From Eledone cirrhosa (taxonomy: Eukaryota): DNA of 64,000 bases. The stretch is from assembly GCA_964016885.1 (NCBI GenBank), contig OZ024741.1, positions 413,292,001 through 413,356,000 of the forward strand, read 5' to 3'. Numbering within the stretch: the first letter of the stretch is position 1; each line of letters starts with the position of its first letter. A program made the position numbers and the translations under genes. Under the pieces are notes generated by a model. It searched no databases. It had not been told where the DNA came from and saw only the letters and a program-made list of their open reading frames with translations. Below are positions 2,245 through 47,983 of the stretch, in pieces.

Positions 2245-2308
<64 letters not shown>

Positions 2309-6810: not shown

Positions 6811-6865
6811 TATAAATATATATATATATATAATATATATATTATATATATATATAATATATATA

Positions 6866-12897: not shown

Positions 12898-13795
<898 letters not shown>

Positions 13796-13971: not shown

Positions 13972-16211
13972 TTAGCCATCGGGCTTTAACACTGGCTTAA
14001 AGTGTTTGAAAGTTGCAAAGTTCTTGTGCATGCAGTTCGGGCAGTGTTCAGAGAGTTTGTTCAGTAGCGGGCCCTTGGCGAATAAAATTTCGTAGCTCTC
14101 TGAAATACAAAGGTCGCAGCCCTTGTGTCCTCCGTTGTAAGAGCGCGCTTCTGGAGTATTTTCCATTTAAGCGTGAAGGGGGTGGAGTTCCTTTTGAGGT
14201 CCCAAACGTAGGAGGCGAGTGTTGTCTGATTTGATTTATCCGGTCTTCTGAAGGAGTGGGTATGGGCATACCAACGGGTCTTAAAGTTGTTGGAGGTCAT
14301 GCCGATGTAAGTTTTTTTGCAATCCTCGGTGCCTGAGATGACATCGCATTTGTATACGATGTCATTTGTGAGGCATTTGTTTTTAAGTGGGCATGCTTCC
14401 TTATTTAGGCAATTACATAGAGCCCCAGTCCAGGGATTGGTTTCGGAGGTGGTTGGCTTATTTAATTTTTTAGAATTGTGGTTGGCTATATTCCTAGCTA
14501 GGTTAGGTGTGGTGGAGTAAGACAGTCTTGTTGTGTTCTTATTAAAGATGGTGTGGTACCTATGTTGTATGGGGAAGTGTAATTTCAGTAAAGTGAAGAA
14601 AATCCTAGCTATCGGAGTAGATACCTCTCTATTGAAGGGAGGGTTGTACCAGCTAATCTGCCTATGTCTATTCCTCCTCTGCAATCTTGCGGTGGTTTCT
14701 AGGTAAGTTATCTTATCTTTAAATCCGCTACGGGCGAGGGCGTCATTGTAGTAGGAGGCAGATGCATTAAAAATATCTTTGTTGGCGGAGAGGCCAGATA
14801 TTCTAATAGAGACGCTTTTTACTAGGTTATCAGTGATGTTTTGGGGGTGGTTTGAATTAACATTAATATATTTAAGGGACTCGTTAGGTCTGTGGTACGG
14901 GTAATAGAGGGAAGTATCTAGGTCGAGAGTGACATCTAAGAAGTTGGCCCTAGTCAAATTAGAATCTATAGTTATACTAAATCCTAAATTAGAGAAGAAA
15001 GAGCTTAAGTTTTTCCGAAACCCATCGGTGGTTCTGGGGTTAACCTTATGCAGGGCGAAGAGGCCGTCGTCTCGGTATAAACCTCCCGTTAGGCCGGTAA
15101 AGAGGTTCTTCAGGTTATGTAGGATGTACAGGCCCACAAGGTCGCTAATTTCAGCCGAGTCACTCGCCCCCATGCTAACGTCAAATGGGGTCTGAGATTT
15201 CTTGTTGATCCAGTAAGATCCATTGTGGTATAGAAAGGTCTTACGAGCGTGGAGGATAACAACTTGCTCAGCATCGGTAATGGTGGTAAAATTCCTGGCA
15301 AAGTTAATTGCGTCCTTCAGAAGGGGCTCCGAGATAGAGGCATAGTAGTTTTCTATGTCGAGTTGCAGGAAGCGAGTGTGGTGTTTATCGGGTAATTTTT
15401 GGAACCATGATATTGCCTCAGATGTTCTGCTCCAGAGTGGAAGTGGTGAGGCTGCCCGCAATGATGGTAGAACTCTATCCAGGATCTTCTTACTGATAGA
15501 GCCGATGTCAGAACGAGTGGGGTTGATAAGTCTGACTGATGGTTTGTTGAGGAAATTTCCCTTATGGTCCTTCAGGGTAAAGTGCGGGGTCTTTACCCTT
15601 AAAGGTTCGGTTCGGTCATGTAATTTAAGGGACTTGGCGATTTCTTTTCCGGCCGCGTTTGTCTCAGTCAGTGCCCTCTCTATTACCTTTTTGTAGGTGG
15701 TCGTGATGGTATTTTTTGCCAGCTTATTGTAGGTCTGTGGGTCTACCTCATAAACGTTTTTGGTTTTATCGGAGGAGACATAAAGATTAGGGGATTTTTT
15801 TATATTCCGTAATTCGGCATTTAAGTAGGCCTGGAATGGTGTGGTGGCTCTACGGAATTTAATATCCTTGATCATCTTGAAGAGGTCTTCTTCAAATGGT
15901 TGGAGTAGGCTGTTGGTGGGTGGTGTCTTATTCGTTTTGAAGCCGAACTTCTCATCATTGGTAGATGCTACATCAGGGTTGTCGAGGAAGAAGGCCCTCC
16001 ATCTAATTCGCTTGATGAACTCGTCGGTACGTCTGATGAGTGTTTTTAAGTATAGTTTCCTTGGAGGGATAGGGATGTTCTTCAAGGAAATATCAAGGTC
16101 GAGTTTGGTCAGCATGGTTTCTTGATGATGGTTATAAGGGGCACAGAGAGTGCTAAAATGTACGTTATTCCGGGTTGAATCGGAGGTAACCACAGTAAGT
16201 AAGGTATTCAA
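13972..16211 (-). pseudogene. PLE polyprotein (RT plus C-terminal GIY-YIG endonuclease), one frameshift near 14150
   Basis: RT motifs LDIENYYASI, MGASDSAEISDL, LYRDDGL, NFLDVTL; linker CNCLNKEAC; IVYKC..TYIGMT..FKTRWYAH; C-terminus CDLC..CMHK continues in the 13972-14166 frame. Confidence 0.93.
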
Positions 16212-16526
16212 TACATAGCAGAGTATAAAAGTTTTAATATAGATGAGATTCTACAGGACTAGAACTGTTTCATTCATTAGAAATCATCAGGAATCTGGGT
16301 ATCAAAAAATAAAAATGGTATTTATAGGTCTCTACAAGTGGTAGGAGAGGGTGGGGAGTGGGATGGGTGTAGGTCATTGGTTGATAGAAAAGGGAATTCA
16401 TTAAAAGCTAATTCTACAAAGCTATAGTTTAGTTTATTTTTATTTATTTATGTTTTTAGAGTAACAAGGGCAGACAGAATTCTATAAACAGGTTCCGGAT
16501 GGCATACCATTCCTTGTCATTAAGTT

Positions 16527-16562: not shown

Positions 16563-17642
16563 ACATAGATTTTACATGTGGCCGGTGCTCCAGTGCAATA
16601 AGTAGCAGCAAGTGCCCACAAAATACTAGCTCTTTCAATTGCGCAGAGGGTTCTATAGAAATAGTGGACAGTTTCCGTTACCTGGGTGATAAAATCAGCA
16701 GTGGGGGAGGGTGCTCTGAAAGTACAGTAGCTAGAGTCAGAACTGGTTGGAAAAAGTTCAGAGAGCTTATACCACTATTAGCTGCTAAAGGGTTCTCCCT
16801 AAAAATGAAAGGCAGGTTGTACGATGCCTGCATACGAACAGCAATGTTGCATGGCAGTGAGACCTGGACATTGTGTGCAGAGGATATACGCAGACTAGAG
16901 AGGAACGAAGCTTGCATGCTCCGCTGGATGTGTAACAGTAATATACGTGAACGGCAAAGCATAAACGAACTAAGGAAAAAATTAGAAATAAGAGGGATCA
17001 GATGTTGTTTACTCGAGAGAAGGCTACGTTGGTATGGACACGTGATGCGCATGAAAGTCGATAGCTGTATAACAAAGTGCAGGGCAATAAAGATAGACGG
17101 TAGCCACGGAATAGGCAGACCTAGAAAAACCTGGGACGAGCTGATAAACTCCGACCTCACACACTTACACCTCTCCAAGACAATGTCACTGGACCGAGAC
17201 CTTTGGCGGTACTCAGTAACAGAGAAGACCCGCCTTACCTAAATACATAGTAAAACCTACTAGTCAGTAGGCATCTCTAACAAAATACCCCCCCCCCCCG
17301 TCCCACCACCCCCACCCCATCCACACCACCCCGTTCTATGTAAAGTTATGTTGGTGCCACACCATCCAGGCCGAAGCAAATGAGATCGTGTAGGTGTCAC
17401 GACAAAAAAACACACAGTCCACGCTGTAATGTGGCCGTGTAGGCAACACGGTAAAAACCTCCCAGACCCACACTGTAAATGTGGTTGGTGTTAGGAAAGG
17501 CATCCAACTGTAGAAAACCTGCCAGACAGTCCTATGCGAGCAAGACAATCACTCTTGCCTCAAGTGGGACTACACCCGTCCAAACCCATGCAAGCGTGGA
17601 ACACGGACGTTAAACGTTGATGATGATGATGATGATGATGAT

Positions 17643-17644
<2 letters not shown>
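16561..17644 (+). mobile_element. RTE family A 3' fragment
   Basis: ORF end [15 protein letters not shown], 3' UTR, (GAT)n; (TA)n on both sides. Confidence 0.95.
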
Positions 17645-17679
<35 letters not shown>

Positions 17680-18377
17680 TAATCTATTTTCTAAACTGCT
17701 TTTCTCTTTATCTCTTTCACTCTATTTGTCTATCTGTTTGTAGATCCATCCATCTATCTATCTATCTCTTACTATCTCCCCAATCTCTCTCGCTCTGTCT
17801 CTTTATATATATATATATATCATATAAATATTACTACCTATATATCTGTCTGTCTACTTATCTATCCTTCTATCTATCATCAACTTAACTAGAGTCAGTT
17901 TCCAGGACTTTCTGACAAGAAACTAGGCTATAATATTGTTAGTCAAATGCAATTGTCCTTAAAATGAAATAAAACAGAAATAAAACAAATAATTCTTCTT
18001 TTAAATAGAAGTGAAAGCTGACTCAGGCTTTTACATACTGTTTACATTAAATTTTCCAAAGTCACATGTATACACACACGCACACATACATACATGTTTG
18101 TATATATATATGTATGAGAGAGAGAGAGATGAGAGAGATATATATATACAAACATATACATGCAGTGAATCATGTCCTCACTAAATAGTTCTATCTTATG
18201 CTTTATGTAAATCTGGATATATTTAAATAATTCTTTCATTTAGGTTAAACTTTTGGGGTTTTTATGAAAGTTTATAACCCAACAAACCATCAAACCTACA
18301 AACCAACAAACCATCAAACCATCACTGTTGTTTTACCTGTTTCCTTGGTTTTGGTTCTTCTCAGTATATCTATTTAT

Positions 18378-18560
18378 TGGCAATAATCGGTAGAGCGTCG
18401 GACGCCATGCTTTGTGGCATTGAGTTACGGCCCTTTACATTCTGAGTTCAAATCCCGCCAAGGTTACTTTTGCCTTTCATCATTACGGGGTCAATAAAAT
18501 AAAGTACCAGTAATGCACTGGTGTCAATTGCTGGCCTTGTGCCAAATATAGAAACGATTA
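18378..18560 (+). mobile_element. tRNA-derived SINE (family 1)
   Basis: TGGCAATAATCGG A box, GAGTTCAAATCC B box; homologous to 1605-1787. Confidence 0.8.
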
Positions 18561-18596
18561 TGTGTGTATATATATATATATATAGATATAGATATA

Positions 18597-18751
18597 TCAT
18601 CATCATCACTATTCAACGTTCATTTATCCATGCTAGTATGGGCTAGACAAGTTGTCCTATTGTGAGCAATGCTAGGTCAAATGACCATGTTTTGCTCATA
18701 CAGAACTGATTTTGCCTTGGTTTTTACAGCTGGATGCCCTTCCTAACCCTA
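18597..18751 (-). mobile_element. RTE family C-type 3' end anchoring the 48-bp array
   Basis: (CAT)n, tail and GCTGGATGCCCTTCCTAAC motif collinear with 46639-46800. Confidence 0.85.
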
Positions 18752-21700
18752 ACCACTTTACAGTGTTGACTGGGTGTTTTTTTTTGTAGTGACACCTACA
18801 CGACCACTTTACAGTGTGGGCTGGGTGTTTTTTGTAGAGACACCTACACAACCACTTTATAGTGTGGGCTGAGTGTTTTTTGTAGAGACACCTACACAAC
18901 CACTTTATAGTGTGGGCTGGGTGTTTTTTGTAGAGACACCTACACAACCACTTTATGGTGTGGGCTGGGTGTTTTTTGTAGTGACACCTACACAACCACT
19001 TTATGGTGTGGGCTGGGTGTTTTTTGTAATGACACTTACACAACCACTTTATGGTGTGGGCTGGGTGTTTTTTGTAGTGACACCTACATGACCACTTTAT
19101 AGTGTGGGCTGGGTGTTTTTTGTAGAGACACCTACACAACCACTTTATAGTGTGGGCTGGGTGTTTTTTGTAGAGACACCTACACGACCACTTTACAGTG
19201 TGGGCTGGGTGTTTTTTGTAGAGACACCTACACAACCACTTTATAGTGTGGGCTGAGTGTTTTTTGTAGAGACACCTACACAACCACTTTATAGTGTGGG
19301 CTGGGTGTTTTTTGTAGAGACACCTACACAACCACTTTATGGTGTGGGCTGGGTGTTTTTTGTAGTGACACCTACACAACCACTTTATGGTGTGGGCTGG
19401 GTGTTTTTTGTAGAGACACCTACACAACCACTTTATGGTGTGGGCTGGGTGTTTTTTGTAGTGACACCTACATGACCACTTTATAGTGTGGGCTGGGTGT
19501 TTTTTGTAGAGACACCTACACAACCACTTTATAGTGTGGGCTGGGTGTTTTTTGTAGAGACACCTACACGACCACTTTACAGTGTGGGCTGGGTGTTTTT
19601 TGTAGAGACACCTACACAACCACTTTATAGTGTGGGCTGGGTGTTTTTTGTAGAGACACCTACACAACCACTTTATGGTGTGGGCTGGGTGTTTTTTGTA
19701 GTGACACCTACATGACCACTTTATAGTGTGGGCTGGGTGTTTTTTGTAGAGACACCTACACAACCACTTTATAGTGTGGGCTGGGTGTTTTTTGTAGAGA
19801 CACCTACACGACCACTTTACAGTGTGGGCTGGGTGTTTTTTGTAGAGACACCTACACAACCACTTTATAGTGTGGGCTGGGTGTTTTTTGTAGTGACACC
19901 TACACAACCACTTTATAGTGTGGGCTGGGTGTTTTTTGTAGAGACACCTACACAACCACTTTATAGTGTGGGCTGGGTGTTTTTTGTAGTGACACCTACA
20001 CGACCACTTTATAGTGTGGGCTGGGTGTTTTTTGTAGAGACACCTACACAACCACTTTATAGTGTGGGCTGGGTGTTTTTTGTAGTGACACCTACACAAC
20101 CACTTTATAGTGTGGGCTGGGTGTTTTTTGTAGAGACACCTACACAACCACTTTATAGTGTGGGCTGGGTGTTTTTTGTAGAGACACCTACACGACCACT
20201 TTACAGTGTGGGCTGGGTGTTTTTTGTAGAGACACCTACACAACCACTTTATAGTGTGGGCTGGGTGTTTTTTGTAGTGACACCTACACAACCACTTTAT
20301 AGTGTGGGCTGGGTGTTTTTTGTAGAGACACCTACACAACCACTTTATAGTGTGGGCTGGGTGTTTTTTGTAGAGACACCTACACAACCACTTTACAGTG
20401 TTGACTGGGTGTTTTTTGTAGTGACACCTACACAACCACTTTATAGTGTGGGCTGGGTGTTTTTTGTAGTGATACCTACACAACCACTTTATAGTGTGGG
20501 CTGGGGGTTTTTTGTAGAGACACCTACGCAACCACTTTATAGTGTGGGCTGGGTGTTTTTTGTAGTGACACCTACACAACCACTTTACAGTGTTGACTGG
20601 GTGTTTTTTGTAGAGACACCTACACAACCACTTTATAGTGTGGGCTGGGTGTTTTTTATAGTGACACCTACACGACCACTTTACAGTGTGGGCTGGGTGT
20701 TTTTTGTAGTGACACTTACACAACCACTTTACAGTGTGGGCTGGGTGTTTTTTGTAGTGACACCTACACAACCACTTTACAGTGTGGGCTGGGTGTTTTT
20801 TGTAGTGACACCTACACAACCACTTTACAGTGTTGACTGGGTGTTTTTTGTAGTGACACCTACACAACCACTTTACAGTGTGGGCTGGGTGTTTTTTGTA
20901 GTGACACCTACACAACCACTTTACAGTGTGGGCTGGGTGTTTTTTGTAGTGACACCTACACAACCACTTTACAGTGTTGACTGGGTGTTTTTTGTAATGA
21001 CACTTACACAACCACTTTATAGTGTGGACTGGGTGTTTTTTGTAGAGACACCTACACAACCACTTTACAGTGTGGGCTGGGTGTTTTTTGTAGAGACACC
21101 TACACAACCACTTTACAGTGTGGGCTGGGTGTTTTTTGTAGAGACACCTACACAACCACTTTATAGTGTGGGCTGGGTGTTTTTTGTAGTGACACCTACA
21201 CAACCACTTTATAGTGTGGGCTGGGTGTTTTTTGTAGAGACACCTACACAACCACTTTACAGTGTGGGCTGGGTGTTTTTTGTAGAGACACCTACACAAC
21301 CACTTTATAGTGTGGACTGGGTGTTTTTTGTAGTGATACCTACACAACCACTTTATAGTGTTGACTGGGTGTTTTTTGTAGAGACACCTACACAACCACT
21401 TTATAGTGTGGGCTGGGTGTTTTTTGTAGTGACACCTACACAACCACTTTACAGTGTGGGCTGGGTGTTTTTTGTAGTGACACCTACACAACCACTTTAC
21501 AGTGTGGGCTGGGTGTTTTTTGTAGTGACACCTACACAACCACTTTACAGTGTTGACTGGGTGTTTTTTGTAATGACACTTACACAACCACTTTATAGTG
21601 TGGACTGGGTGTTTTTTGTAGAGACACCTACACAACCACTTTACAGTGTGGGCTGGGTGTTTTTTGTAGAGACACCTACACAACCACTTTACAGTGTGGG

Positions 21701-24700
21701 CTGGGTGTTTTTTGTAGAGACACCTACACAACCACTTTATAGTGTGGGCTGGGTGTTTTTTGTAGTGACACCTACACAACCACTTTACAGTGTTGACTGG
21801 GTGTTTTTTGTAGAGACACCTACACAACCACTTTACAGTGTGGGCTGGGTGTTTTTTGTAGAGACACCTACACAACCACTTTATAGTGTGGGCTGGGTGT
21901 TTTTTGTAGAGACACCTACACAACCACTTTATAGTGTGGACTGGGTGTTTTTTGTAGTGACACCTACACAACCACTTTACAGTGTGGGCTGGGTGTTTTT
22001 TGTAGTGACACCTACACAACCACTTTACAGTGTTGACTGGGTGTTTTTTGTAATGACACTTACACAACCACTTTACAGTGTGGACTGGGTGTTTTTTGTA
22101 GAGACACCTACACAACCACTTTACAGTGTGGGCTGGGTGTTTTTTGTAGAGACACCTACACAACCACTTTACAGTGTGGGCTGGGTGTTTTTTGTAGAGA
22201 CACCTACACAACCACTTTATAGTGTGGGCTGGGTGTTTTTTGTAGTGACACCTACACAACCACTTTATAGTGTGGGCTGGGTGTTTTTTGTAGAGACACC
22301 TACACAACCACTTTACAGTGTGGGCTGGGTGTTTTTTGTAGAGACACCTACACAACCACTTTATAGTGTGGACTGGGTGTTTTTTGTAGTGATACCTACA
22401 CAACCACTTTATAGTGTTGACTGGGTGTTTTTTGTAGAGACACCTACACAACCACTTTATAGTGTGGGCTGGGTGTTTTTTGTAGTGACACCTACACAAC
22501 CACTTTACAGTGTGGGCTGGGTGTTTTTTGTAGTGACACCTACACAACCACTTTACAGTGTTGACTGGGTGGTTTTTGTAATGACACTTACACAACCACT
22601 TTATAGTGTGGACTGGGTGTTTTTTGTAGAGACACCTACACAACCACTTTACAGTGTGGGCTGGGTGTTTTTTGTAGAGACACCTACACAACCACTTTAC
22701 AGTGTGGGCTGGGTGTTTTATGTAGAGACACCTACACAACCACTTTATAGTGTGGGCTGGGTGTTTTTTGTAGTGACACCTACACAACCACTTTACAGTG
22801 TTGACTGGGTGTTTTTTGTAGAGACACCTACACAACCACTTTACAGTGTGGGCTGGGTGTTTTTTGTAGAGACACCTACACAACCACTTTATAGTGTGGG
22901 CTGGGTGTTTTTTGTAGAGACACCTACACAACCACTTTATAGTGTGGACTGGGTGTTTTTTGTAGTGATACCTACACAACCACTTTATAGTGTTGACTGG
23001 GTGTTTTTTGTAGAGACACCTACACAACCACTTTATAGTGTGGGCTGGGTGTTTTTTGTAGTGACACCTACACAACCACTTTACAGTGTGGGCTGGGTGT
23101 TTTTTGTAGAGACACCTACACAACCACTTTATAGTGTGGGCTGGGTGTTTTTTGTAGTGACACCTACACAACCACTTTATAGTGTGGGCTGGGTGTTTTT
23201 TGTAGTGACACCTACACAACCACTTTACAGTGTGGGCTGGGTGTTTTTTGTAGAGACACCTACACAACCACTTTATAGTGTGGGCTGGGTGTTTTTTGTA
23301 GTGACACCTACACAACCACTTTACAGTGTGGGCTGGGTGTTTTTTGTAGAGACACCTACACAACCACTTTATAGTGTGGGCTGGGTGTTTTTTGTAGAGA
23401 CACCTACACAACCACTTTACAGTGTTGACTGGGTGTTTTTTGTAGAGACACCTACACAACCACTTTATAGTGTGGGCTGGGTGTTTTTTGTAGTGACACC
23501 TACACAACCACTTTATAGTGTGGGCTGGGTGTTTTTTGTAGAGACACCTACACAACCACTTTATAGTGTGGGCTGGGTGTTTTTTGTAGTGACACCTACA
23601 CAACCACTTTACAGTGTGGGCTGGGTGTTTTTTGTAGAGACACCTACACAACCACTTTATAGTGTGGGCTGGGTGTTTTTTGTAGTGACACCTACACAAC
23701 CACTTTACAGTGTGGGCTGGGTGTTTTTTGTAGAGACACTTACACAACCACTTTATAGTGTGGGCTGGGTGTTTTTTGTAGTGACACCTACACAACCACT
23801 TTACAGTGTGGGCTGGGTGTTTTTTGTAGAGACACCTACACAACCACTTTATAGTGTGGGCTGGGTGTTTTTTGTAGAGACACCTACACAACCACTTTAC
23901 AGTGTTGACTGGGTGTTTTTTGTAGAGACACCTACACAACCACTTTATAGTGTGGGCTGGGTGTTTTTTGTAGTGACACCTACACAACCACTTTATAGTG
24001 TGGGCTGGGTGTTTTTTGTAGAGACACCTACACAACCACTTTATAGTGTGGGCTGGGTGTTTTTTGTAGTGACACCTACACAACCACTTTACAGTGTTGA
24101 CTGGGTGTTTTTTGTAGAGACACCTACACAACCACTTTATAGTGTGGGCTGGGTGTTTTTTATAGTGACACCTACACGACCACTTTACAGTGTGGGCTGG
24201 GTGTTTTTTGTACTGACACCTACACAACCACTTTACAGTGTTGACTGGGTGTTTTTTGTAGTGACACCTACACAACCACTTTACAGTGTGGGCTGGGTGT
24301 TTTTTGTAGTGACACCTACACAACCACTTTACAGTGTGGGCTGGGTGTTTTTTGTAGTGACACCTACACAACCACTTTACAGTGTTGACTGGGTGTTTTT
24401 TGTAGAGACACCTACACAACCACTTTACAGTGTGGGCTGGGTGTTTTTTGTAGAGACACCTACACAACCACTTTACAGTGTGGGCTGGGTGTTTTTTGTA
24501 GAGACACCTACACAACCACTTTATAGTGTGGGCTGGGTGTTTTTTGTAGTGACACCTACACAACCACTTTACAGTGTTGACTGGGTGTTTTTTGTAGAGA
24601 CACCTACACAACCACTTTATAGTGTGGACTGGGTGTTTTTTGTAGTGATACCTACACAATCACTTTACAGTGTGGGCTGGGTGTTTTTTGTAGAGACACC

Positions 24701-27700
24701 TACACAACCACTTTACAGTGTGGGCTGGGTGTTTTTTGTAGAGACACCTACACAACCACTTTATAGTGTGGGCTGGGTGTTTTTTGTAGTGACACCTACA
24801 CAACCCCTTTACAGTGTTGACTGGGTGTTTTTTGTAGTGACACCTACACAACCACTTTACAGTGTGGGCTGGGTGTTTTTTGTAGAGACACCTACACAAC
24901 CACTTTATAGTGTGGGCTGGGTGTTTTTTGTAGAGACACCTACACAACCACTTTATAGTATGGGCTGGGTGTTTTTTGTAGAGACACCTACACAACCACT
25001 TTACAGTGTGGGCTGGGTGTTTTTTGTAGAGACACCTACACAACCACTTTACAGTGTGGGCTGGGTGTTTTTTGTAGAGACACCTACACAACTACTTTAT
25101 AGTGTGGGCTGGGTGTTTTTTGTAGTGACACCTACACAACCACTTTATAGTGTGGGCTGGGTGTTTTTTGTAGAGACACCTACACAACCACTTTACAGTG
25201 TGGGCTGGGTGTTTTTTGTAGAGACACCTACACAACCACTTTACAGTGTTGACTGGGTGTTTTTTGTAATGACACTTACACAACCACTTTATAGTGTGGG
25301 CTGGGTGTTTTTTGTAGAGACACCTACACAACCACTTTACAGTGTGGGTTGGGTGTTTTTTGTAGAGACACCTACACAACCACTTTATAGTGTGGGCTGG
25401 GTGTTTTTTGTAGAGACACCTACACAACCACTTTATAGTATGGGCTGGGTGTTTTTTGTAGAGACACTTACACAACCACTTTACAGTGTGGGCTGGGTGT
25501 TTTTTGTAGAGACACCTACACAACCACTTTACAGTGTGGGCTGGGTGTTTTTTGTAGAGACACCTACACAACCACTTTATAGTGTGGGCTGGGTGTTTTT
25601 TGTAGTGACACCTACACAACCACTTTATAGTGTGGGCTGGGTGTTTTTTGTAGAGACACCTACACAACCACTTTACAGTGTGGGCTGGGTGTTTTTTGTA
25701 GAGACACCTACACAACCACTTTATAGTGTGGACTGGGTGTTTTTTGTAGTGATACCTACACAACCACTTTATAGTGTTGACTGGGTGTTTTTTGTAGAGA
25801 CACCTACACAACCACTTTATAGTGTGGGCTGGGTGTTTTTTGTAGTGACACCTACACAACCACTTTACAGTGTGGGCTGGGTGTTTTTTGTAGTGACACC
25901 TACACAACCACTTTACAGTGTGGGCTGGGTGTTTTTTGTAGTGACACCTACACAACCACTTTACAGTGTTGACTGGGTGTTTTTTGTAATGACACTTACA
26001 CAACCACTTTATAGTGTGGACTGGGTGTTTTTTGTAGAGACACCTACACAACCACTTTACAGTGTGGGCTGGGTGTTTTTTGTAGAGACACCTACACAAC
26101 CACTTTACAGTGTGGGCTGGGTGTTTTTTGTAGAGACACCTACACAACCACTTTATAGTGTGGGCTGGGTGTTTTTTGTAGTGACACCTACACAACCACT
26201 TTACAGTGTTGACTGGGTGTTTTTTGTAGAGACACCTACACAACCACTTTACAGTGTGGGCTGGGTGTTTTTTGTAGAGACACCTACACAACCACTTTAC
26301 AGTGTGGGCTGGGTGTTTTTTGTAGAGACACCTACACAACCACTTTATAGTGTGGGCTGGGTGTTTTTTGTAGTGACACCTACACAACCACTTTATAGTG
26401 TGGGCTGGGTGTTTTTTGTAGAGACACCTACACAACCACTTTACAGTGTGGGCTGGGTGTTTTTTGTAGAGACACCTACACAACCACTTTATAGTGTGGA
26501 CTGGGTGTTTTTTGTAGTGATACCTACACAACCACTTTATAGTGTTGACTGGGTGTTTTTTGTAGAGACACCTACACAACCACTTTATAGTGTGGGCTGG
26601 GTGTTTTTTGTAGTGACACCTACACAACCACTTTACAGTGTGGGCTGGGTGTTTTTTGTAGTGACACCTACACAACCACTTTACAGTGTGGGCTGGGTGT
26701 TTTTTGTAGTGACACCTACACAACCACTTTACAGTGTTGACTGGGTGTTTTTTGTAATGACACTTACACAACCACTTTATAGTGTGGACTGGGTGTTTTT
26801 TGTAGAGACACCTACACAACCACTTTACAGTGTGGGCTGGGTGTTTTTTGTAGAGACACCTACACAACCACTTTACAGTGTGGGCTGGGTGTTTTTTGTA
26901 GAGACACCTACACAACCACTTTATAGTGTGGGCTGGGTGTTTTTTGTAGTGACACCTACACAACCACTTTACAGTGTTGACTGGGTGTTTTTTGTAGAGA
27001 CACCTACACAACCACTTTACAGTGTGGGCTGGGTGTTTTTTGTAGAGACACCTACACAACCACTTTATAGTGTGGGCTGGGTGTTTTTTGTAGAGACACC
27101 TACACAACCACTTTATAGTGTGGACTGGGTGTTTTTTGTAGTGATACCTACACAACCACTTTATAGTGTTGACTGGGTGTTTTTTGTAGAGACACCTACA
27201 CAACCACTTTATAGTGTGGGCTGGGTGTTTTTTGTATTGACACCTACACAACCACTTTACAGTGTGGGCTGGGTGTTTTTTGTAGAGACACCTACACAAC
27301 CACTTTATAGTGTGGGCTGGGTGTTTTTTGTAGTGACACCTACACAACCACTTTACAGTGTGGGCTGGGTGTTTTTTGTAGAGACACCTACACAACCACT
27401 TTATAGTGTGGGCTGGGTGTTTTTTGTAGTGACACCTACACAACCACTTTACAGTGTGGGCTGGGTGTTTTTTGTAGAGACACCTACACAACCACTTTAT
27501 AGTGTGGGCTGGGTGTTTTTTGTAGAGACACCTACACAACCACTTTACAGTGTTGACTGGGTGTTTTTTGTAGAGACACCTACACAACCACTTTATAGTG
27601 TGGGCTGGGTGTTTTTTGTAGTGACACATACACAACCACTTTATAGTGTGGGCTGGGTGTTTTTTGTAGAGACACCTACACAACCACTTTATAGTGTGGG

Positions 27701-30700
27701 CTGGGTGTTTTTTGTAGTGACACCTACACAACCACTTTACAGTGTGGGCTGGGTGTTTTTTGTAGAGACACCTACACAACCACTTTATAGTGTGGGCTGG
27801 GTGTCTTTTGTAGTGACACCTACACAACCACTTTACAGTGTGGGCTGGGTGTTTTTTGTAGAGACACCTACACAACCACTTTATAGTGTGGGCTGGGTGT
27901 TTTTTGTAGTGACACCTACACAACCACTTTACAGTGTGGGCTGGGTGTTTTTTGTAGAGACACCTACACAACCACTTTATAGTGTGGGCTGGGTGTTTTT
28001 TGTAGAGACACCTACACAACCACTTTACAGTGTTGACTGGGTGTTTTTTGTAGAGACACCTACACAACCACTTTATAGTGTGGGCTGGGTGTTTTTTGTA
28101 GTGACACCTACACAACCACTTTATAGTGTGGGCTGGGTGTTTTTTGTAGAGACACCTACACAACCACTTTATAGTGTGGGCTGGGTGTTTTTTGTAGTGA
28201 CACCTACACAACCACTTTACAGTGTTGACTGGGTGTTTTTTGTAGAGACACCTACACAACCACTTTATAGTGTGGGCTGGGTGTTTTTTATAGTGACACT
28301 TACACGACCACTTTACAGTGTGGGCTGGGTGTTTTTTGTAGTGACACTTACACAACCACTTTACAGTGTGGGCTGGGTGTTTTTTGTAGTGACACCTACA
28401 CAACCACTTTACAGTGTGGGCTGGGTGTTTTTTGTAGTGACACCTACATAACCACTTTACAGTGTTGACTGGGTGTTTTTGGTAGTGACACCTACACAAC
28501 CACTTTACAGTGTGGGCTGGGTGTTTTTTGTAGTGACACCTACACAACCACTTTACAGTGTGGGCTGGGTGTTTTTTGTAGTGACACCTACACAACCACT
28601 TTACAGTGTTGACTGGGTGTTTTTTGTAGAGACACCTACACAACCACTTTACAGTGTGGGCTGGGTGTTTTTTGTAGAGACACCTACACAACCACTTTAC
28701 AGTGTGGGCTGGGTGTTTTTTGTAGAGACACCTACACAACCACTTTATAGTGTGGGCTGGGTGTTTTTTGTAGTGACACCTACACAACCACTTTACAGTG
28801 TTGACTGGGTGTTTTTTGTAGAGACACCTACACAACCACTTTATAGTGTGGACTGGGTGTTTTTTGTAGTGATACCTACACAACCACTTTACAGTGTGGG
28901 CTGGGTGTTTTTTGTAGAGACACCTACACAACCACTTTACAGTGTGGGCTGGGTGTTTTTTGTAGAGACACCTACACAACCACTTTATAGTGTGGGCTGG
29001 GTGTTTTTTGTAGTGACACCTACACAACCCCTTTACAGTGTTGACTGGGTGTTTTTTGTAGTGACACCTACACAACCACTTTACAGTGTGGGCTGGGTGT
29101 TTTTTGTAGTGACACCTACACAACCACTTTACAGTGTGGGCTGGGTGTTTTTTGTAGTGACACCTACACAACCACTTTATAGTGTGGGCTGGGTGTTTTT
29201 TGTAGTGACACCTACACAACCACTTTACAGTGTGGGCTGGGTGTTTTTTGTAGAGACACCTACACAACCACTTTATAGTGTGGGCTGGGTGTTTTTTGTA
29301 GTGACACCTACACAACCACTTTACAGTGTGGGCTGGGTGTTTTTTGTAGAGACACCTACACAACCACTTTATAGTGTGGGCTGGGTGTTTTTTGTAGAGA
29401 CACCTACACAACCACTTTACAGTGTTGACTGGGTGTTTTTTGTAGAGACACCTACACAACCACTTTATAGTGTGGGCTGGGTGTTTTTTGTAGTGACACA
29501 TACACAACCACTTTATAGTGTGGGCTGGGTGTTTTTTGTAGAGACACCTACACAACCACTTTATAGTGTGGGCTGGGTGTTTTTTGTAGTGACACCTACA
29601 CAACCACTTTACAGTGTGGGCTGGGTGTTTTTTGTAGAGACACCTACACAACCACTTTATAGTGTGGGCTGGGTGTCTTTTGTAGTGACACCTACACAAC
29701 CACTTTACAGTGTGGGCTGGGTGTTTTTTGTAGAGACACCTACACAACCACTTTATAGTGTGGGCTGGGTGTTTTTTGTAGTGACACCTACACAACCACT
29801 TTACAGTGTGGGCTGGGTGTTTTTTGTAGAGACACCTACACAACCACTTTATAGTGTGGGCTGGGTGTTTTTTGTAGAGACACCTACACAACCACTTTAC
29901 AGTGTTGACTGGGTGTTTTTTGTAGAGACACCTACACAACCACTTTATAGTGTGGGCTGGGTGTTTTTTGTAGTGACACCTACACAACCACTTTATAGTG
30001 TGGGCTGGGTGTTTTTTGTAGAGACACCTACACAACCACTTTATAGTGTGGGCTGGGTGTTTTTTGTAGTGACACCTACACAACCACTTTACAGTGTTGA
30101 CTGGGTGTTTTTTGTAGAGACACCTACACAACCACTTTATAGTGTGGGCTGGGTGTTTTTTATAGTGACACTTACACGACCACTTTACAGTGTGGGCTGG
30201 GTGTTTTTTGTAGTGACACTTACACAACCACTTTACAGTGTGGGCTGGGTGTTTTTTGTAGTGACACCTACACAACCACTTTACAGTGTGGGCTGGGTGT
30301 TTTTTGTAGTGACACCTACATAACCACTTTACAGTGTTGACTGGGTGTTTTTGGTAGTGACACCTACACAACCACTTTACAGTGTGGGCTGGGTGTTTTT
30401 TGTAGTGACACCTACACAACCACTTTACAGTGTGGGCTGGGTGTTTTTTGTAGTGACACCTACACAACCACTTTACAGTGTTGACTGGGTGTTTTTTGTA
30501 GAGACACCTACACAACCACTTTACAGTGTGGGCTGGGTGTTTTTTGTAGAGACACCTACACAACCACTTTACAGTGTGGGCTGGGTGTTTTTTGTAGAGA
30601 CACCTACACAACCACTTTATAGTGTGGGCTGGGTGTTTTTTGTAGTGACACCTACACAACCACTTTACAGTGTTGACTGGGTGTTTTTTGTAGAGACACC

Positions 30701-33700
30701 TACACAACCACTTTATAGTGTGGACTGGGTGTTTTTTGTAGTGATACCTACACAACCACTTTACAGTGTGGGCTGGGTGTTTTTTGTAGAGACACCTACA
30801 CAACCACTTTACAGTGTGGGCTGGGTGTTTTTTGTAGAGACACCTACACAACCACTTTATAGTGTGGGCTGGGTGTTTTTTGTAGTGACACCTACACAAC
30901 CCCTTTACAGTGTTGACTGGGTGTTTTTTGTAGTGACACCTACACAACCACTTTACAGTGTGGGCTGGGTGTTTTTTGTAGTGACACCTACACAACCACT
31001 TTACAGTGTGGGCTGGGTGTTTTTTGTAGTGACACCTACACAACCACTTTACAGTGTTGACTGGGTGTTTTTTGTAATGACACTTACACAACCACTTTAT
31101 AGTGTGGGCTGGGTGTTTTTTGTATGGAGACACCTACACAACCACTTTACAGTGTGGGCTGGGTGTTTTTTGTAGTGACACCTACACAACCACTTTACAG
31201 TGTTGACTGGGTGTTTTTTGTAATGACACTTACACAACCACTTTATAGTGTGGGCTGGGTGTTTTTTGTAGTGACACCTACACAACCACTTTACAGTGTG
31301 GGCTGGGTGTTTTTTGTAGTGACACCTACACAACCACTTTACAGTGTGGGCTGGGTGTTTTTTGTAGTGACACCTACACAACCACTTTACAGTGTTGACT
31401 GGGTGTTTTTTGTAGAGACACCTACACAACCACTTTACAGTGTGGGCTGGGTGTTTTTTGTAGAGACACCTACACAACCACTTTACAGTGTGGGCTGGGT
31501 GTTTTTTGTAGAGACACCTACACAACCACTTTATAGTGTGGGCTGGGTGTTTTTTGTAGTGACACCTACATAACCCCTTTACAGTGTTGACTGGGTGTTT
31601 TTTGTAGTGACACCTACACAACCACTTTACAGTGTGGGCTGGGTGTTTTTTGTAGTGACACCTACACAACCACTTTACAGTGTGGGCTGGGTGTTTTTTG
31701 TAGTGACACCTACACAACCACTTTACAGTGTTGACTGGGTGTTTTTTGTAATGACACTTACACAACCACTCTATAGTGTGGGCTGGGTGTTTTTTGTATG
31801 GAGACACCTACACAACCACTTTACAGTGTGGGCTGGGTGTTTTTTGTAGTGACACCTACACAACCACTTTACAGTGTTGACTGGGTGTTTTTTGTAATGA
31901 CACTTACACAACCACTTTATAGTGTGGGCTGGGTGTTTTTTGTAGAGACACCTACACAACCACTTTACAGTGTGGGCTGGGTGTTTTTTGTAGAGACACC
32001 TACACAACCACTTTATAGTGTGGGCTGGGTGTTTTTTGTAGAGACACCTACACAACCACTTTATAGTGTTGACTGGGTGTTTTTTGTAGAGACACCTACA
32101 CAACCACTTTACAGTGTGGGCTGGGTGTATTTTGTAGAGACACCTACATAACCACTTTATAGTGTGGGCTGGGTGTTTTTTGTACAGACACCTACACAAC
32201 CACTTTATAGTGTTGACTGGGTGTTTTTTGTAGAGACACCTACACAACCACTTTAGAGTGTGGGCTGGGTGTTTTTTGTAGAGACACCTACACAAGCACT
32301 TTACAGTGTGGGCTGGGTGTTTTTTGTAGAGACACCTACACAAGCACTTTACAGTGTGGGCTGGGTGTTTTTTGTAGAGACACCTACACAACCACTTTAC
32401 AGTGTGGGCTGGGTGTTTTTTGTAGTGACACCTACACAACCACTTTATAGTGTGGGCTGGGTGTTTTTTGTAGAGACACCTACACAACCACTTTATAGTG
32501 TGGGCTGGGTGTTTTTTGTAGTGACACCTACACAACCACTTTATAGTGTGGGCTGGGTGTTTTTTGTAGTGACACCTACACAACCACTTTACAGTGTGGG
32601 CTGGGTGTTTTTTGTAGTGACACCTACACAACCACTTTACAGTGTTGACTGGGTGTTTTTTTAGGTGACACCTACACAACCACTTTACAGTGTTGACTGG
32701 GTGTTTTTTGTAGAGACACCTACACAACCACTTTACAGTGTGGGCTGGGTGTTTTTTGTAGAGACACCTACACAACCACTTTATAGTGTGGGCTGGGTGT
32801 TTTTTGTAGAGACACCTACACAACCACTTTATAGTGTGGACTGGGTGTTTTTTGTAGTGATACCTACACAACCACTTTATAGTGTTGACTGGGTGTTTTT
32901 TTGTAGAGACACCTACACAAACACTTTACAGTGTGGGCTGGGTTTTTTTTTGTAGAGACACCTACACAACCACTTTATAGTGTGGGCTGGGTGTTTTTTG
33001 TAGTGACACCTACACAACCACTTTATAGTGTGGGCTGGGTTTTTTTTTGTAGAGACACCTACACAACCACATTATAGTGTGGGCTGGGTGTTTTTTGTAG
33101 TGACACCTACACAACCACTTTATAGTGTGGGCTGGGTGTTTTTTGTAGTGACACCTACACAACCACTTTATAGTGTGGGCTGGGTGTTTTTTGTAGAGAC
33201 ACCTACACAACCACTTTACAGTGTTGACTGGGTGTTTTTTGTAGAGACACCTACACAACCACTTTATAGTGTGGGCTGGGTGTTTTTTGTAGAGACTCCT
33301 ACACAACCACTTTACAGTGTGGGCTGGGTGTTTTTTGTAGTGACACCTACACAACCACTTTACAGTGTTGACTGGGTGTTTTTTGAGGTGACACCTACAC
33401 AACCACTTTACAGTGTGGGCTGGGTGTTTTTTGTAGAGACACCTACACAACCACTTTATAGTGTGGGCTGGGTGTTTTTTGTAGAGACACCTACACAACC
33501 ACTTTATAGTGTGGGCTGGGTGTTTTTTGTAGAGACACCTACACAACCACTTTACAGTGTGAGCTGGGTTTTTTTTTGTAGAGACACCTACACAACCACT
33601 TTATAGTGTGGGCTGGGTGTTTTTTGTAGTGACACCTACACAACCACTTTATAGTGTGGGCTGGGTGTTTTTTGTAGTGACACCTACACAACCACTTTAT

Positions 33701-34530
33701 AGTGTGGGCTGGGTGTTTTTTGTAGAGACACCTACACAACCACTTTACAGTGTTGACTGGGTGTTTTTTGTAGAGACACCTACACAACCACTTTATAGTG
33801 TGGGCTGGGTGCTTTTTGTAGAGACACCTACACAACCACTTTACAGTGTGGGCTGGGTGTTTTTTGTAGAGACACCTACACAACCACTTTATAGTGTGGG
33901 CTGGGTGTTTTTTGTAGAGACACCTACACAACCACTTTACAGTGTGGGCTGGGTGTTTTTTGTAGTGACACCTACACAACCACTTTACAGTGTTGACTGG
34001 GTGTTTTTTGAGGTGACACCTACACAACCACTTTACAGTGTTGACTGGGTGTTTTTTGTAGAGACACCTACACAACCACTTTACAGTGTGGGCTGGGTGT
34101 TTTTTGTAGAGACACCTACACAACCACTTTATAGTGTGGACTGGGTGTTTTTTGTAGTGATACCTACACAACCACTTTATAGTGTTGACTGGGTGTTTTT
34201 TTGTAGAGACACCTACACAAACACTTTACAGTGTGGGCTGGGTGTTTTTTGTAGAGACACCTACACAACCACTTTATAGTGTGGGCTGGGTGTTTTTTGT
34301 AGAGACACCTACACAACCACTTTATAGTGTGGACTGGGTGTTTTTTGTAGAGACACCTACACAACCACTTTATACTGTGGACTGGGTGTTTTTTGTAGTG
34401 ATACCTACACAACCACTTTATAGTGTTGACTGGGTGTTTTTTGTAGAGACACCTACACAACCACTTTACAGTGTGGGCTGGGTGTTTTTTGTAGAGACAC
34501 CTACACAACCACTTTATAGTGTGGACTGGG
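18752..34530. repeat. 48-bp tandem array, ~329 units, with higher-order repeats
   Basis: Unit ACCACTTTA(T/C)AGTGT(GG/TG)(G/A)CTGGGTGTTTTTTGTAG(A/T)GACACCTACACA; exact 48-bp phase to ~31120, scattered indels after. Confidence 0.99.
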
Positions 34531-34611
34531 TACTTTTGTGGGAAAGAGTGTGGGGATTAACTACATCAAACATTAAACTAATATGTTTCTTCATTGTATT
34601 GTGTTGATATT

Positions 34612-34850
34612 GTGGACATGTGGTTAGAATGTCTCAGGAAAGAATCCCTGGACAGATTTTACAGGCAAAACCAGCTGGCAGGAGACCCAGGGGTAGACTC
34701 CGAGCAAGATGGTTAGATAACATCTATAACATCGGCTGGTCTTGGGGATCCAGCTGGATCAGTTGGAGATGCTGGCTTCTGACAAGACCCACTGGAAGCA
34801 GTGTTTCAGGACTCTGTCCTCACAACCCTCTCAGGAATAAGTGGGTGAAG
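34612..34850 (+). mobile_element. Old RTE-clade C-terminal fragment (different family)
   Basis: GHVVRMSQERIPGQILQAKPAGRRPRGRLRARWLD resembles the RTE C-terminal GH..RM..GRP..RW signature. Confidence 0.7.
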
Positions 34851-35217
34851 AAGTTTGTACTATGTTGTTTGCTTTGTTGTCTCTCTTTACTTTTAGCATG
34901 CCTATGTATACATATATGCATATTCGGAACACTGCAGCAGATTGGAACTGCAGAAAGTGATGCATCGGTCCAGTATCTCAATTATCTTACTCCACAAAGT
35001 CATCTTCCTCACTGATTAAAGTATGTGTCCACTCTAACCAGCTGGATTTTAATTTTAATAATACAAGCTTAATTGATTATTGAGTGATTGAAGAAATGAC
35101 CAAAGCTGTGTCCATTCTATTGGACTCTTAATTATATATATACATATACATATATATATATATATATATATAGATAGATAAATATACACGGGTGTGTATG
35201 ATTGTGTATAGAAGATT

Positions 35218-35605
35218 ATATTAATAAGAGGAATTCCAACTTTGTCTGATTTACTCGTTTTATTTACAATCCTTTAAAATTTATAATGGTATTATAATGA
35301 AATAGTATGATAGAATATTAAATTCTAAGTGTTAATTGAACAAGTACTTTCATGCTTTCGCAATCTTCAGGTTCATAATATGTGGTGACAGTCAAGTTTG
35401 CAAATTTCAACTGTGAAAATTGCAAACTTGACTGTCACCACATATTATGAACCTGAAGATTGCGAAAGCATGAAAGTACTTGTTCAATTAACACTTAGAA
35501 TTTAATATTCTATCATACTATTTCATTATAATACCATTATAAATTTTAAAGGATTGTAAATAAAACGAGTAAATCAGACAAAGTTGGAATTCCTCTTATT
35601 AATAT
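35218..35605. repeat. Fold-back inverted repeat (~186-bp arms, 16-nt spacer) of a PLE-like 3' end
   Basis: 35218-35403 is the reverse complement of 35420-35605. Confidence 0.95.
35448..35486 (+). ncRNA. Minimal hammerhead ribozyme (mirror copy on - strand at 35337-35375)
   Basis: tgaac-CTGAAGA-t-tgc-gaaa-gca-t-GAAA-gtac-TT-gttca; palindromic stem III AGTACT. Confidence 0.8.
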
Positions 35606-36986: not shown

Positions 36987-38875
36987 GGTGGTTGTGGTGG
37001 TGGTGGTGGTGGTGGTGGTAGTGGGGGTGGTAGCAGTGGTGGTGTTGTGGTGGTAGTTGTGGTGCTGTGGTAGTAGTGGTGGTTGTGATAGTGGTGGTGG
37101 TGGTGGTGATAGTGGTGGTGGTGGTATTGCTGGTTGTTTGTGGGGGAGTTAATAGCTATTGCTGTACAATTGGTGTGGTGGTGGTTGTGCAGTAGTGTGG
37201 TGTTGTTGATGGTGGTGTTGGTGGTGATGTAGTGGTGGTGTTGGTGTTGTAGTGGCGGTGTTGGTGATGTGATGTAGTGGTGGTGGTGGTGGTGGTGATA
37301 CAGTGGTGGTGTTGGTGGTGTGATGCAGTGGTGGTGGTGGTGGTGTTGTAGTGGCAGTGTTGGTGATGTAGTGCTGGTGTTGATGGTGTTGTAGTGGTGG
37401 TGTGATGTAGTGGTGGTGGTGGTGGTGTTGTAGTGGTGGTGATACAGTGGTGGTGTTGGTGGTGTGATGTAGTGGTGGTGGTGGTGTTGTAGTGGCGGTG
37501 TTGGTGGTGTGATGTAGTGGTGGTGGTGGTGGTGGTGATACAGTGGTGGTGTTGGTGGTGTGATGTAGTGGTGGTGGTGGTAATGTAGTGGCGGTGTTAG
37601 TGGTGTGATGTAGTGCTGGTGTTGGTGGTGTTGTAGTGGTGGTGTGATGTAGTGGTGGTGGTGTTGTAGTGGCGGTGTTGGTGGTGGTGATGTAGTGGTG
37701 GTGGGTGTTGGTGGTGATGGTGGTGATGTAGTGGTGTTGGTGGTGGTGATGTAGTGGTGGTGGAGGTGATGTAGTGGTGGTGGTGGTGATGTAGTGGTGG
37801 TGGTGGTGGTGATGTAGTGGCGGTGGTGGTGGTGATGTAGTGGTGGTGGTGGTGGTGGTGATATAGTGGTGGTGGTGGTGGTGGTGATGTAGTGGTGGTG
37901 TTGGTGGTGATGTAGTGGTGGTGGTGGTGGTGATACAGTAGTGGTGTTGGTGGTGATGTAGTGGCGGTGTTGGTGATGTAGTGGTGGTGTTATAGTGGTG
38001 GTGGTGGTGGTGATGTAGTGGTGGTGGTGGTGGTGATGTAGTGGTGGTGTTGGTGGCGTTATAGTGGTGGTGGTGGTGGTGATGTAGTGTTGGTGGTGAT
38101 GTAGTGGCGGTGGTGGTGGTGATGTAGTGGTGGTGGTGGTGGTGATGTAGTGGTGGTGGTGATGTAGTGGTGGTGGTGATGTAGTGGTGGTGGTGGTGGT
38201 GGTGGTGATGTAGTGGTGGTGGTCTTGGTGGTGATGTAGTGGTGTTGGTAGTGATGTAGTGGTGGTGTTGGTGGTGGTGGTGGTGGTGATGTAGTGGTGA
38301 TATAGTGGTGGTGTTGGTGGTGATGTAGTGGCGGTGTTGGTGGTGATGTAGTGGCGGTGGTGGTGGTGATGTAGTAGTGGTGTTGGTTGTGTTGGTGGTG
38401 ATATAGTGGTGGTGGTGGTGGTGGTGATGTAGTGGTGGTGTTGGTGGTGATGTAGTGGTGGTGGTGGTGTTGTAGTGGTGGTGGTGATACACTAGTGGTG
38501 TTGGTGGTGATGTAGTGGCGGTGTTGGTGATGTAGTGGTGGTGGTGGTGGTGATGTAGTGGTGGTGTTGGTGGTGGTGGTGGTGGTGATGTAGTGGTGGT
38601 GGTGGTGGTGATGTAGTGGTGGTGTTGGTGGTGTTATAGTGGTGGTGGTGGTGGTGATGTAGTGGTGGTGTTGGTGGTGATGTAGTGGCGGTGGTGGTGG
38701 TGATGTAGTGGTGGTGGTGGTGATGTAGTGGTGGTGATGTAGTGGTGGTGGTGGTGATGTAGTTGTGGTGTTGGTGGTGATGTAGTGGTGGTGTTGGTGG
38801 TGTTATAGTGGTGGTGGTGGTGGTGTTGGTGGTGGTGGTAGTTGAGTCGTAGCAGCAGCAGCATTGTAGTTGTAG
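36987..38875. repeat. Degenerate trinucleotide tract (GGT/GAT/GTA)
   Basis: Direct inspection. Confidence 0.95.
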
Positions 38876-38967
38876 TGTGTCTAACTATTTACCACATCAC
38901 TTACCATGGCAATGATATAATACACTACTGATAATAGACTCAGCTTCTCCGACACACTTCACTGCAC

Positions 38968-39925: not shown

Positions 39926-40216
39926 TATATACACACATATATATAGACACACACATGTAAATATATATATCACTTTAAAAACATTCATGTTTTCTCTTCA
40001 AAAACATATATTTTCTTTCTTCCTCTCGTCTTTCTATTTCTTCTTTCATCTCTCATTCTAACTTCTGATGAAGGACTAGCATCCAAAACATTCACAGTAT
40101 TTTTCTACTGCATCTGATATATATCCTCATTGTACTGTATTGTTTCACTGTGTTGTTCATCCATTTACTTTTCACACATATATATATATATCATCATCAT
40201 CATCATCATCATTGTT

Positions 40217-43794: not shown

Positions 43795-44050
43795 TATATA
43801 AGGTATATGTACTTATTATCTATGTTCTGTGACACTATTACAATATTGATTACATCTTGGATGTATGTGTTCTTATGTTTGGGAATTGTACAAACACATC
43901 ATCATCATTGTTGTTTTATGTCTGCTTTCCCTGCCAGAACTTTAAACCTTCTTGACATATCTCAACAAAGTTGATTACATGCACATACACATACAAACAA
44001 ATATATACACACACATACACATACAAACAAATATATACACACATATACAC

Positions 44051-44379
44051 TTAGTGGTTAGAGCATTGGCCTTGCAATCGAAAGGTTGTGAGTTCAATTC
44101 TCAGACCGGGTGATGTGTTGTTTCCTTGAGCAAGACACTTTATTTCACATTGCTCCAGTTTACTCAGCTGTAAAAATGAGATGATAGGACTTGGGTCCCT
44201 ATCATTCCACTGTAAAGTGGACGTGGAGGTGCCACGGAAAAAAAAAGCACCCAGCACTCACTGCAAATTAGGTTGGTGTTAGTAAGGGCATCCAGCTGTA
44301 GAAATCAAGCCAGAATCAGTTCCTGTCCCACCCTTGCAAGCAGGGAAAAGCGGACGTAAAATGATGATGATGATGATGA
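44051..44379 (+). mobile_element. SINE family 2 copy
   Basis: Collinear with 41276-41590; (GAT)n tail. Confidence 0.88.
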
Positions 44380-44731
44380 TACACATACGAACAAATATAT
44401 ACACACATATACACATACGAACAAATATATACACACATATACACATACGAACAAATATATACACACTTATACACATACGTAGAAATATATACACACATAT
44501 ACACATAAGAACAAATATATACACACATATACACATACGAACGAATATATACACACATATACACATTCAAAGAAATATATACACACATATACACATACGA
44601 ACAAATATATACACACATATACACATACGAACAAATATATACACACATATACACATACGAACAAATATATACACACATATACACATACCAACAAATATAT
44701 ACACACATATACACATACCAACAAATATATA
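44380..44731. repeat. 30-bp minisatellite, ~11.5 copies
   Basis: ACACATACGAACAAATATATACACACATAT. Confidence 0.95.
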
Positions 44732-46638: not shown

Positions 46639-47742
46639 CATCATCATCATCATCACCGTTTTACGTCCGTTCTTCCACGCTAGCATGGGTTAGACGGGTT
46701 GTCCTGTTGTGGGCAGTGTCTGGTCGGCTGACCATGCCTTGCTCATACAGGAACTGATCTGGCTTGATTTCTACAGCTGGATGCCCTTCCTAACACCAAC
46801 CTCATTTACAGTGAGTGCTGGGCGCTTTTTCGTGGCACCTACACGTCCACTTTACAGTGTGGGCTGGGTGCTTTTTTGCCGTGGCACCTCCACGACCACC
46901 TTGCGGTGGGGGGAGTGGGGGCATATTGTTTATATGCTTCAGCATGTACCCATGGGAGGTCTGGTACCCTGTATTACTGCGTGACGCCAGAAGTCACGGT
47001 CGTGTGTCATTGTCTTTGAGAGGTGTAGTTGGGTAAGGTCGGCTTTTATCACCTCATCCCAAGTCATCTTGGGTCTCCCCACTCCGCGGTTTCCATCAAC
47101 TTCTAGTGCTCTGCACCTTTTTATGCAGCTGTCATCCTTCATACGCATCGCATGTCCATACCAGCGTAACCGCCTCTCCTGCACGCAGCATTTGATTCCT
47201 CTTATGCTCAGTCTCTCTCTCAATTCCTTTATGCTTTGTCGTTCACGTATATTACTGTTACACATCCATCGGAGCATGCATGCTTCGTTTCTCTCTAATC
47301 TACGTAAGTCTTCCACCTTCAGCGCCCAGGTCTCACTACCATCCAACATCGCTGTTCGGATACACGCATCATACAGTCTGCCTTTCATTCTGAGGGAGAA
47401 GCCTTTTGCAGCTAGCAGTGGTAGTAGTTCCCTAAACTTCTTCCATCCCGTTCTTACCCTAGTTATTGTACTTTCTGAGCACCCACCTCCGTTGCTAATT
47501 CGGTCACCTAGGTAGCAGAAGCTGTCTACTGTTTCTACAGGGCTCTCCCAGAGATTGGTGGTACTTGTTTCCTGTGGCTGTTTGCTTGCTGTTTCAGCAC
47601 AGCTGCTGCATGTGAATCCTACATTCTTAATTAAGCTTCCTGAGATCCCGCTACATCTCTTGTGTACCCATTGTTTGCATTTGGGGCAGAGAATGGAGTT
47701 CCTACCTACACCTTTCCTACATACTGAGCAAGGCCATTTCCC
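46639..47742 (-). mobile_element. RTE family C 3' fragment (PHD finger to tail)
   Basis: KWPCSVC..; [34 protein letters not shown]; UTR with two subunits; (GAT)n. Confidence 0.92.
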
Positions 47743-47767
47743 TTTTTGTGTGCCCTTTCCCAGTTGT

Positions 47768-47958
47768 GTGCCCTTTCTAATACCGACCTCATTTACAATG
47801 TGGACTGGGTGCTTTTTGTCATGTCAGCTACACAACCACTTTACAGTGTGGACTGGGTGCTTTTTGTCATGCCAGCTACACAACCACTTTACAGTGTGGA
47901 CTGGGTGCTTTTTGTCATGCCAGCTACACAACCACTTTACAGTGTGGACTGGGTGCTT
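47768..47958. repeat. ~4 copies of a variant 48-bp unit in a 3' UTR fragment
   Basis: ACAACCACTTTACAGTGTGGACTGGGTGCTTTTTGTCATGCCAGCTAC preceded by a TGCCCTTTCTAATACC motif. Confidence 0.9.
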
Positions 47959-47983
47959 TTATATTTATGTGTATATATATATA

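Follow-up and report, generated by a model that had tools for sequence, protein, structure and literature searches.

SVA retroposons carry a tandem repeat, their VNTR, upstream of the retroposon tail and move together with this array. In squamates, the SINE-derived satellites sSat1-3 consist of an internal retroposon segment in tandem, with a few to 1,000 units, as described in the available sections of PMC10702118. Most Lathyrus satellites, and PisTR-A of Pisum, are traced to tandem repeats in the 3' untranslated region (UTR) of Ogre elements in the accessible text of PMC7004042. Satellites from the 3' end of LINEs include the cetacean common satellite (L1), chicken HinfI (CR1) and Drosophila 18HT (HeT-A), all named in an excerpt of PMC9659126. 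The octopus RTE element with a microsatellite in its 3' UTR, as outlined in part of PMC9115989, has a different layout.

Here, we analysed a window of 64,000 nucleotides of the Eledone cirrhosa genome (the whole stretch of DNA to which the positions below refer), which lies on a 416-Mb contig at a distance of 3.0 Mb from its end and contains a long array of 48-bp units (Table 1). An initial annotation had estimated about 329 units, in agreement with TRF, which reports period 48, 328.5 copies and 94% matches over the length given in the assembly. Most likely, this array is a 48-bp UTR subrepeat of RTE-like LINEs, together with its decayed tail, that expanded in place from an old, truncated insertion with two to three units. 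Several other readings, among them spread by RNA, are weighed below against the evidence that bears on them.

Table 1. Features of the array and of related retroposons in the window.
Feature	Position	Strand	Remarks
RTE-A 3' UTR: two diverged subunits, motif, tail, (GAT)n	17389..17645	+	related family, not the array's parent
Retroposon tail joined to the last unit	18597..18750	-	contains GGAAGGGCATCC (18732-18743), a terminal hairpin with one broken pair (about 18628-18641) and (GAT)4
48-bp tandem array, 328.5 copies	18751..34531	- (element sense)	TRF; mosaic of variant units, local higher-order blocks
Perfect 1,893-bp duplication, lag 1,872 bp (39 units)	27287..31051		very recent unequal exchange or local assembly error
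Broken, unrelated retroposon ORF end adjoining the array's headless 5' end	about 34595..34855	+	three-frame translation, read by eye
SINE-like element: about 1.5 subunits, motif, the same terminal hairpin, (GAT)n	44045..44380	+	
5'-truncated RTE-C copy with tail	46640..47760	-	two subunits at 46798-46896; ORF end shares 76% identity with RTE-A
3.5-unit array of an older element	47792..47960	-	TRF; junctions by eye; tail about 46520-46638

A common unit of the array is 81-87% like the 3' UTR subrepeats of neighbouring retroposons in the window, with 39/47 and 39/48 aligned positions identical in RTE-A, 41/47 and 37/45 in RTE-C, and 39/48 in the SINE, as the initial annotation had noticed. Within the window, the truncated RTE-C copy is the closest relative of the array's subfamily. 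The label RTE for the parent LINEs follows the naming in the initial annotation and motifs that we take to be those of this clade. The RTE-A ORF matched RVT_1 at an E value of 1e-32 as well as a PHD finger, which sits directly after the RT domain in the LINE ORFs at 10444-12900 and 46939-47760; no endonuclease family matched in the RTE-A fragment scanned. A further array, first put at about four copies (47768-47958), has 3.5 copies in TRF, and its junctions, read by eye, indicate that the RTE-C insertion split the element from its tail. The stretch 46520-47960 is by eye a nested insertion of RTE-C inside the motif of this older four-unit element; the AACTG at either flank may be a target-site duplication.

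Copies of RTE-A with a 112-bp tandem UTR duplication that includes GGAAGGGCATCC lie at 9319-9550, 10038-10274 and about 52430-52640 and are a young subfamily bearing a fresh tandem seed. The junction of this duplication is matched exactly at 5,501 places in the genome, so that short UTR duplications likely spread via retrotransposition. The short to long arrays proposed to show all stages of satellite birth in the window belong to different subfamilies and do not form one lineage. The window also contains a second array of 10.9 kb (50117-61002), whose 26-28-bp unit consists of runs of CT and AT and which is broken up by an RTE-A 3' fragment at about 52000-52764. At 36987-39926, a GGT-rich array of 1.9 kb and, after it, a CT-rich one of 0.95 kb show extreme strand skew. 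By eye, about 35220-35600 forms an almost perfect palindrome, each arm being some 180 bp long. On the minus strand, a stop-free frame of 729 amino acids at 14061-16250 had no Pfam match at 1e-3; it presumably resembles a Penelope-like RT with a GIY-YIG nuclease.

The description of the subrepeat as structured did not stand up to folding analysis and is at best a weak lead. On the sense strand, one, two and three units gave z scores of -0.18, -0.26 and -0.35, which equals background, and RNAalifold returned no consensus structure for 12 aligned subunits. In a named two-hairpin structure, 65% of cells are paired versus 62% in shuffles; its first helix, weak as a lead, is 79% paired with two compensated pairs. 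The z score of -2.6 on the antisense strand likely results from G-U pairs, and an Rfam scan of 17200-19100 returned 16 weak rows, none near the gathering score.

The array splits into 313 segments (some of two or four units) of 56 types in non-periodic order, dominated by four variable sites. Blocks of 16-18 units recur at several lags, and higher-order blocks overall range from 16 to 39 units. The perfect 39-unit block is the sole suspect part of the assembly, on which the array length rests. It is very improbable that this length is an assembly expansion: the one perfect 1,893-bp duplication is what such an error could leave, and no listed contig spans the stretch examined, but the error would cover about 39 of the 329 units, and the 56 segment types in non-periodic order, the window without a single N, and sister arrays that cover all sizes and bear their own variants argue against it. 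Contigs of run X1, which may be the source sample, match two flank pieces within 17700-18900 without differences; no contig from four runs spans this interval, and summed depth there is no measure of copy number. Long frames without stop codons, reaching 2,911 codons, cross the array at 19716-28451 (plus strand) and 18696-24659 (minus strand); we regard them as a by-product of the 16-codon unit and not as genes.

Read on the minus strand, the array leads into GGAAGGGCATCC, a 150-bp LINE-type tail and (GAT)4 ending near 18597, which confirms the contiguity that had been proposed. No RTE ORF or UTR head was found at the 5' end, and the array flanks compared share no 6-20-mer as a target-site duplication. 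For the retroposon fragment at 34595-34855, any family resemblance is our presumption. The claim that the array had grown inside a retroposon 3' UTR therefore divides: the origin from a UTR subrepeat holds, and the position within a UTR at this headless locus would follow from homology and from other loci. Similarly, the proposed retention of a recognition tail is right about its attachment and wrong about its integrity, as this tail departs by 9.9% from the majority sequence of 39 relatives and has lost one pair of the terminal hairpin. The hairpin is common to LINEs and SINEs, and in 147 tails selected by the motif, a biased set, 134-143 are paired at each of the five pairs.

Units diverge from the array's own consensus by a mean of 3.6% in comparison with 8.0% for the tail, and 97% of variant instances are shared between units. 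Identical unit pairs make up 8.8%, versus 0.03% expected had the units aged independently at the tail's 8%. Low unit divergence and the excess of identical pairs suggest that array growth came after the insertion had aged.

A genome search with a ten-unit query, from which the best 39 of 1,799 candidates were taken, gave 38 other arrays, the closest being 93% identical to the query; searches overall covered the best 39-40 of 1,799-7,157 candidates each. Together with two arrays from a tail search, 40 arrays were compared, mostly of 10-200 units. The longest seen is a tailed 67-kb array of about 1,400 units in the interior of C28 (G000:C28:94409831-94477041), and 5.5 kb away lies a second one of 136 units, which has both an ORF end and a tail (94482600-94489135; loci L056, L084-L087 and L115-L117 for both). 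Given dozens of sisters and this far larger array, the 329-copy array is neither unique nor the longest. Classical satellite DNA is heterochromatic, extends over hundreds of kb or more and can be seen by FISH; the largest array found here has 67 kb.

The question raised at the outset, whether other arrays end in a tail on the same side, is answered by 31 of the 38 unit-selected arrays (from the best 39 of 1,799 candidates), which carry it at their 3' side. Including the two tail-selected arrays, the count is 33/40, that is, 32 by the tail rule plus the C28 array, whose tail was found at its end; among the 33 tails, three are incomplete and that of L052 is degraded. An upstream RTE-type ORF or UTR end is present in 11/40 arrays, ten of them tailed, and a SINE head in one; ten of the 40 sit between an RTE-type ORF end and the tail. 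Heads resemble RTE-C or RTE-A DNA at about 75-90%. Array-specific consensus sequences form 31 types among 41 arrays. These data support the derivation of the satellite unit from a retroposon 3' UTR subrepeat, and this holds genome-wide.

Since 7/40 arrays are tailless and 28/40 headless, some could have spread as DNA fragments. The tailless ones might also be expected if an older satellite, with long arrays as the ancestral state, had been captured into a retroposon UTR. Yet the tailless arrays bear a unit like that of the tailed ones, arrays are more uniform than their own tails, and subunit diversity is greater among retroposon families than among arrays, which leaves satellite capture with next to no probability.

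The size of the seed was estimated from copies selected by a tail-only query, of which 30 of the 40 best matches were taken and the 29 besides the query locus analysed. These copies have a median of 2.3 units (23 with at most 3.5, five with at least 5, two with at least 10), and hence the source elements likely carried two to three units. Among the 30 of 40 best, the closest pair of tails is 5.1% apart and the median is 8.4%; no young copy was found among these closest 30 fetched members of the array's tail subfamily. Across arrays, units were more uniform than tails diverged in 27/29, with medians of 4.2% versus 10%, where tail divergence was taken to the majority of seven neighbours, which overstates age, and where L052 was excluded because its best tail match is a neighbouring SINE.

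In the remaining two of the 29 arrays, unit divergence equals tail divergence, as would be seen had arrays of 5-20 units formed at insertion, by stutter of the reverse transcriptase or from a variable-repeat source, and been homogenised and lengthened later. The high share of tail-selected copies with at least five units (5/29) points the same way. Such an origin is nevertheless decidedly unlikely, as most variant instances (54-100% across arrays) recur in more than one unit, which requires later duplication, and the chromosome bias described below is found in long arrays, not in short copies. We consider it likely that copying at the DNA level, and not jumping, made the arrays grow where they are.

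The initial annotation had proposed that transcripts of the tailed array could seed new arrays, a prediction with which the genome-wide searches do not agree. A 37-base unit variant private to the array has 156 matches in the genome, 156/156 of which lie inside the array and none outside. Likewise, a 42-base piece of the array tail has a single match in the 3.0-Gb genome at up to two mismatches, namely its own locus, and no second copy. Pairwise comparison of 30 array tails (435 pairs) gave a median identity of 81%, with 92% for the best long pair and at most 88% for the tail of the present array, so that no near-identical pair exists in this set. Tail distance and unit distance are uncorrelated among arrays (Mantel r -0.12, p 0.92). 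Heads are present in 12/40 long arrays versus 9/22 short copies (p 0.41); they are not rarer in long arrays.

It is therefore quite unlikely that long tailed arrays give rise to new arrays through transcripts which a related, still active RTE would retrotranspose in trans. Most arrays have kept the tail, the paired hairpin is shared by LINEs and SINEs, the UTR duplication recurs in thousands of exact copies, and many arrays begin within a repeat, as truncated copies would; each of these is compatible with movement by RNA. They are set against the lack of any daughter of the 329-copy array in the searches above, the low best identity of long tails, the headless share that is not higher in long arrays, and the array locus itself, which has neither head nor promoter and a broken hairpin pair. 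Binding may add a further obstacle, in that the proteins of two zebrafish LINEs of a different clade bind their own stem-loop strictly, according to the available part of PMC4176376.

A broader version appears unlikely as well: the family UTR would be a mobile VNTR, with mid-sized tailed arrays copied via RNA, either in cis during the family's active life or in trans through the younger RTE-A, which has this hairpin too, and seeding arrays among hundreds of further loci. If this were true, satellite arrays would seed further arrays by retrotransposition. In the small share of loci examined, long arrays give no sign of moving by RNA; short seeds do move in this way.

The arrays are unevenly distributed over the chromosomes. 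Of the 38 arrays from the best 39 of 1,799 candidates, C24-C27 hold 14 in 3.5% of the genome, and C1-C4 hold 11 in 54%. In one search, 8/10 loci with at least 10 units versus 5/21 with fewer than 5 units lie on chromosomes below 60 Mb (p 0.006), a test that is without one unplaced contig and seven loci of 5-9 units and assumes C18 to be below 60 Mb. On C1-C4, 6/13 arrays are less than 12 Mb from an end, where 5.9% would be expected; relative to short copies (1/13) this end bias is not significant (p 0.07). Small chromosomes and chromosome ends usually recombine more per base, and the bias of arrays to both fits unequal exchange. A causal link with recombination rate is conjectural, because two points run the other way for the longest arrays: the 67-kb array lies inside C28, which has 136 Mb yet is numbered after the smallest chromosomes, and a section of PMC7004042 argues that arrays persist where recombination is low.

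Growth in place, our preferred reading, could proceed as follows. Retrotransposition of an active subfamily would sow thousands of short seeds of two to three units, and the present locus would have started as an old, 5'-truncated insertion of this size. DNA-level unequal exchange or slippage would then expand it in place. A minority of seeds (2/29 sampled reach at least 10 units) would grow independently of each other, favoured on small chromosomes and near ends, with the tail remaining as a boundary. We infer that the tail at this locus is a passive left-over and that the array itself is without function and has left no offspring.

The GGAAGGGCATCC motif might be the Ceph-domain or RTE 5' UTR piece of PMC5786205. 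It is absent from one text supplement of that paper, and the word 'satellite' is absent from PMC13282606. No description of the 48-bp satellite was found in the open literature, a scope outside which most subscription journals fall. The value of the satellite lies in the genome-wide series and not in the single locus. The genome constitutes a clean natural experiment with thousands of insertions of one seed, each dated by its tail, and outcomes from 2 to 1,400 units. It would make it possible to test directly in which chromosomal settings a tandem seed becomes a satellite, which PMC7004042 names as an open question. The arrays would also serve as highly variable markers.

The SVA VNTR moves with its array, whereas daughters that share tail and array, the trait of a mobile VNTR, were not found for the long arrays examined here (best long tail pair 92%). 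Monomer homology, a continuum of sizes, fixed orientation and locus-wise homogenisation are all present, as in retrotransposon satellites of the Ogre and sSat type. In the sections available of PMC10702118, sSat1-3 likewise have a longer terminal unit that runs to the element end on one side, occupy many loci with a subtelomeric tendency and are more uniform in longer arrays; their parent, however, is a tRNA SINE with a 70-290-nt unit that covers much of it, whereas here a ready-made 48-bp subrepeat of a LINE UTR is shared with a SINE. Ogre satellites, as described in PMC7004042, also start from short 3' UTR repeats that were spread by the element and became long at some loci, with all stages in one genome. 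In contrast to that plant LTR element, whose long arrays lie in primary constrictions, the present source is an animal non-LTR element and the arrays are enriched on small chromosomes. The LINE 3'-end satellites listed in the excerpt of PMC9659126 likewise take their monomer from a non-LTR element's 3' part; unlike in these, the parent's tail remains attached here, in some cases along with the ORF end, and dates the array. The route from retrotransposon UTR to satellite is already known, and the 48-bp satellite belongs to the retrotransposon-derived satellites.
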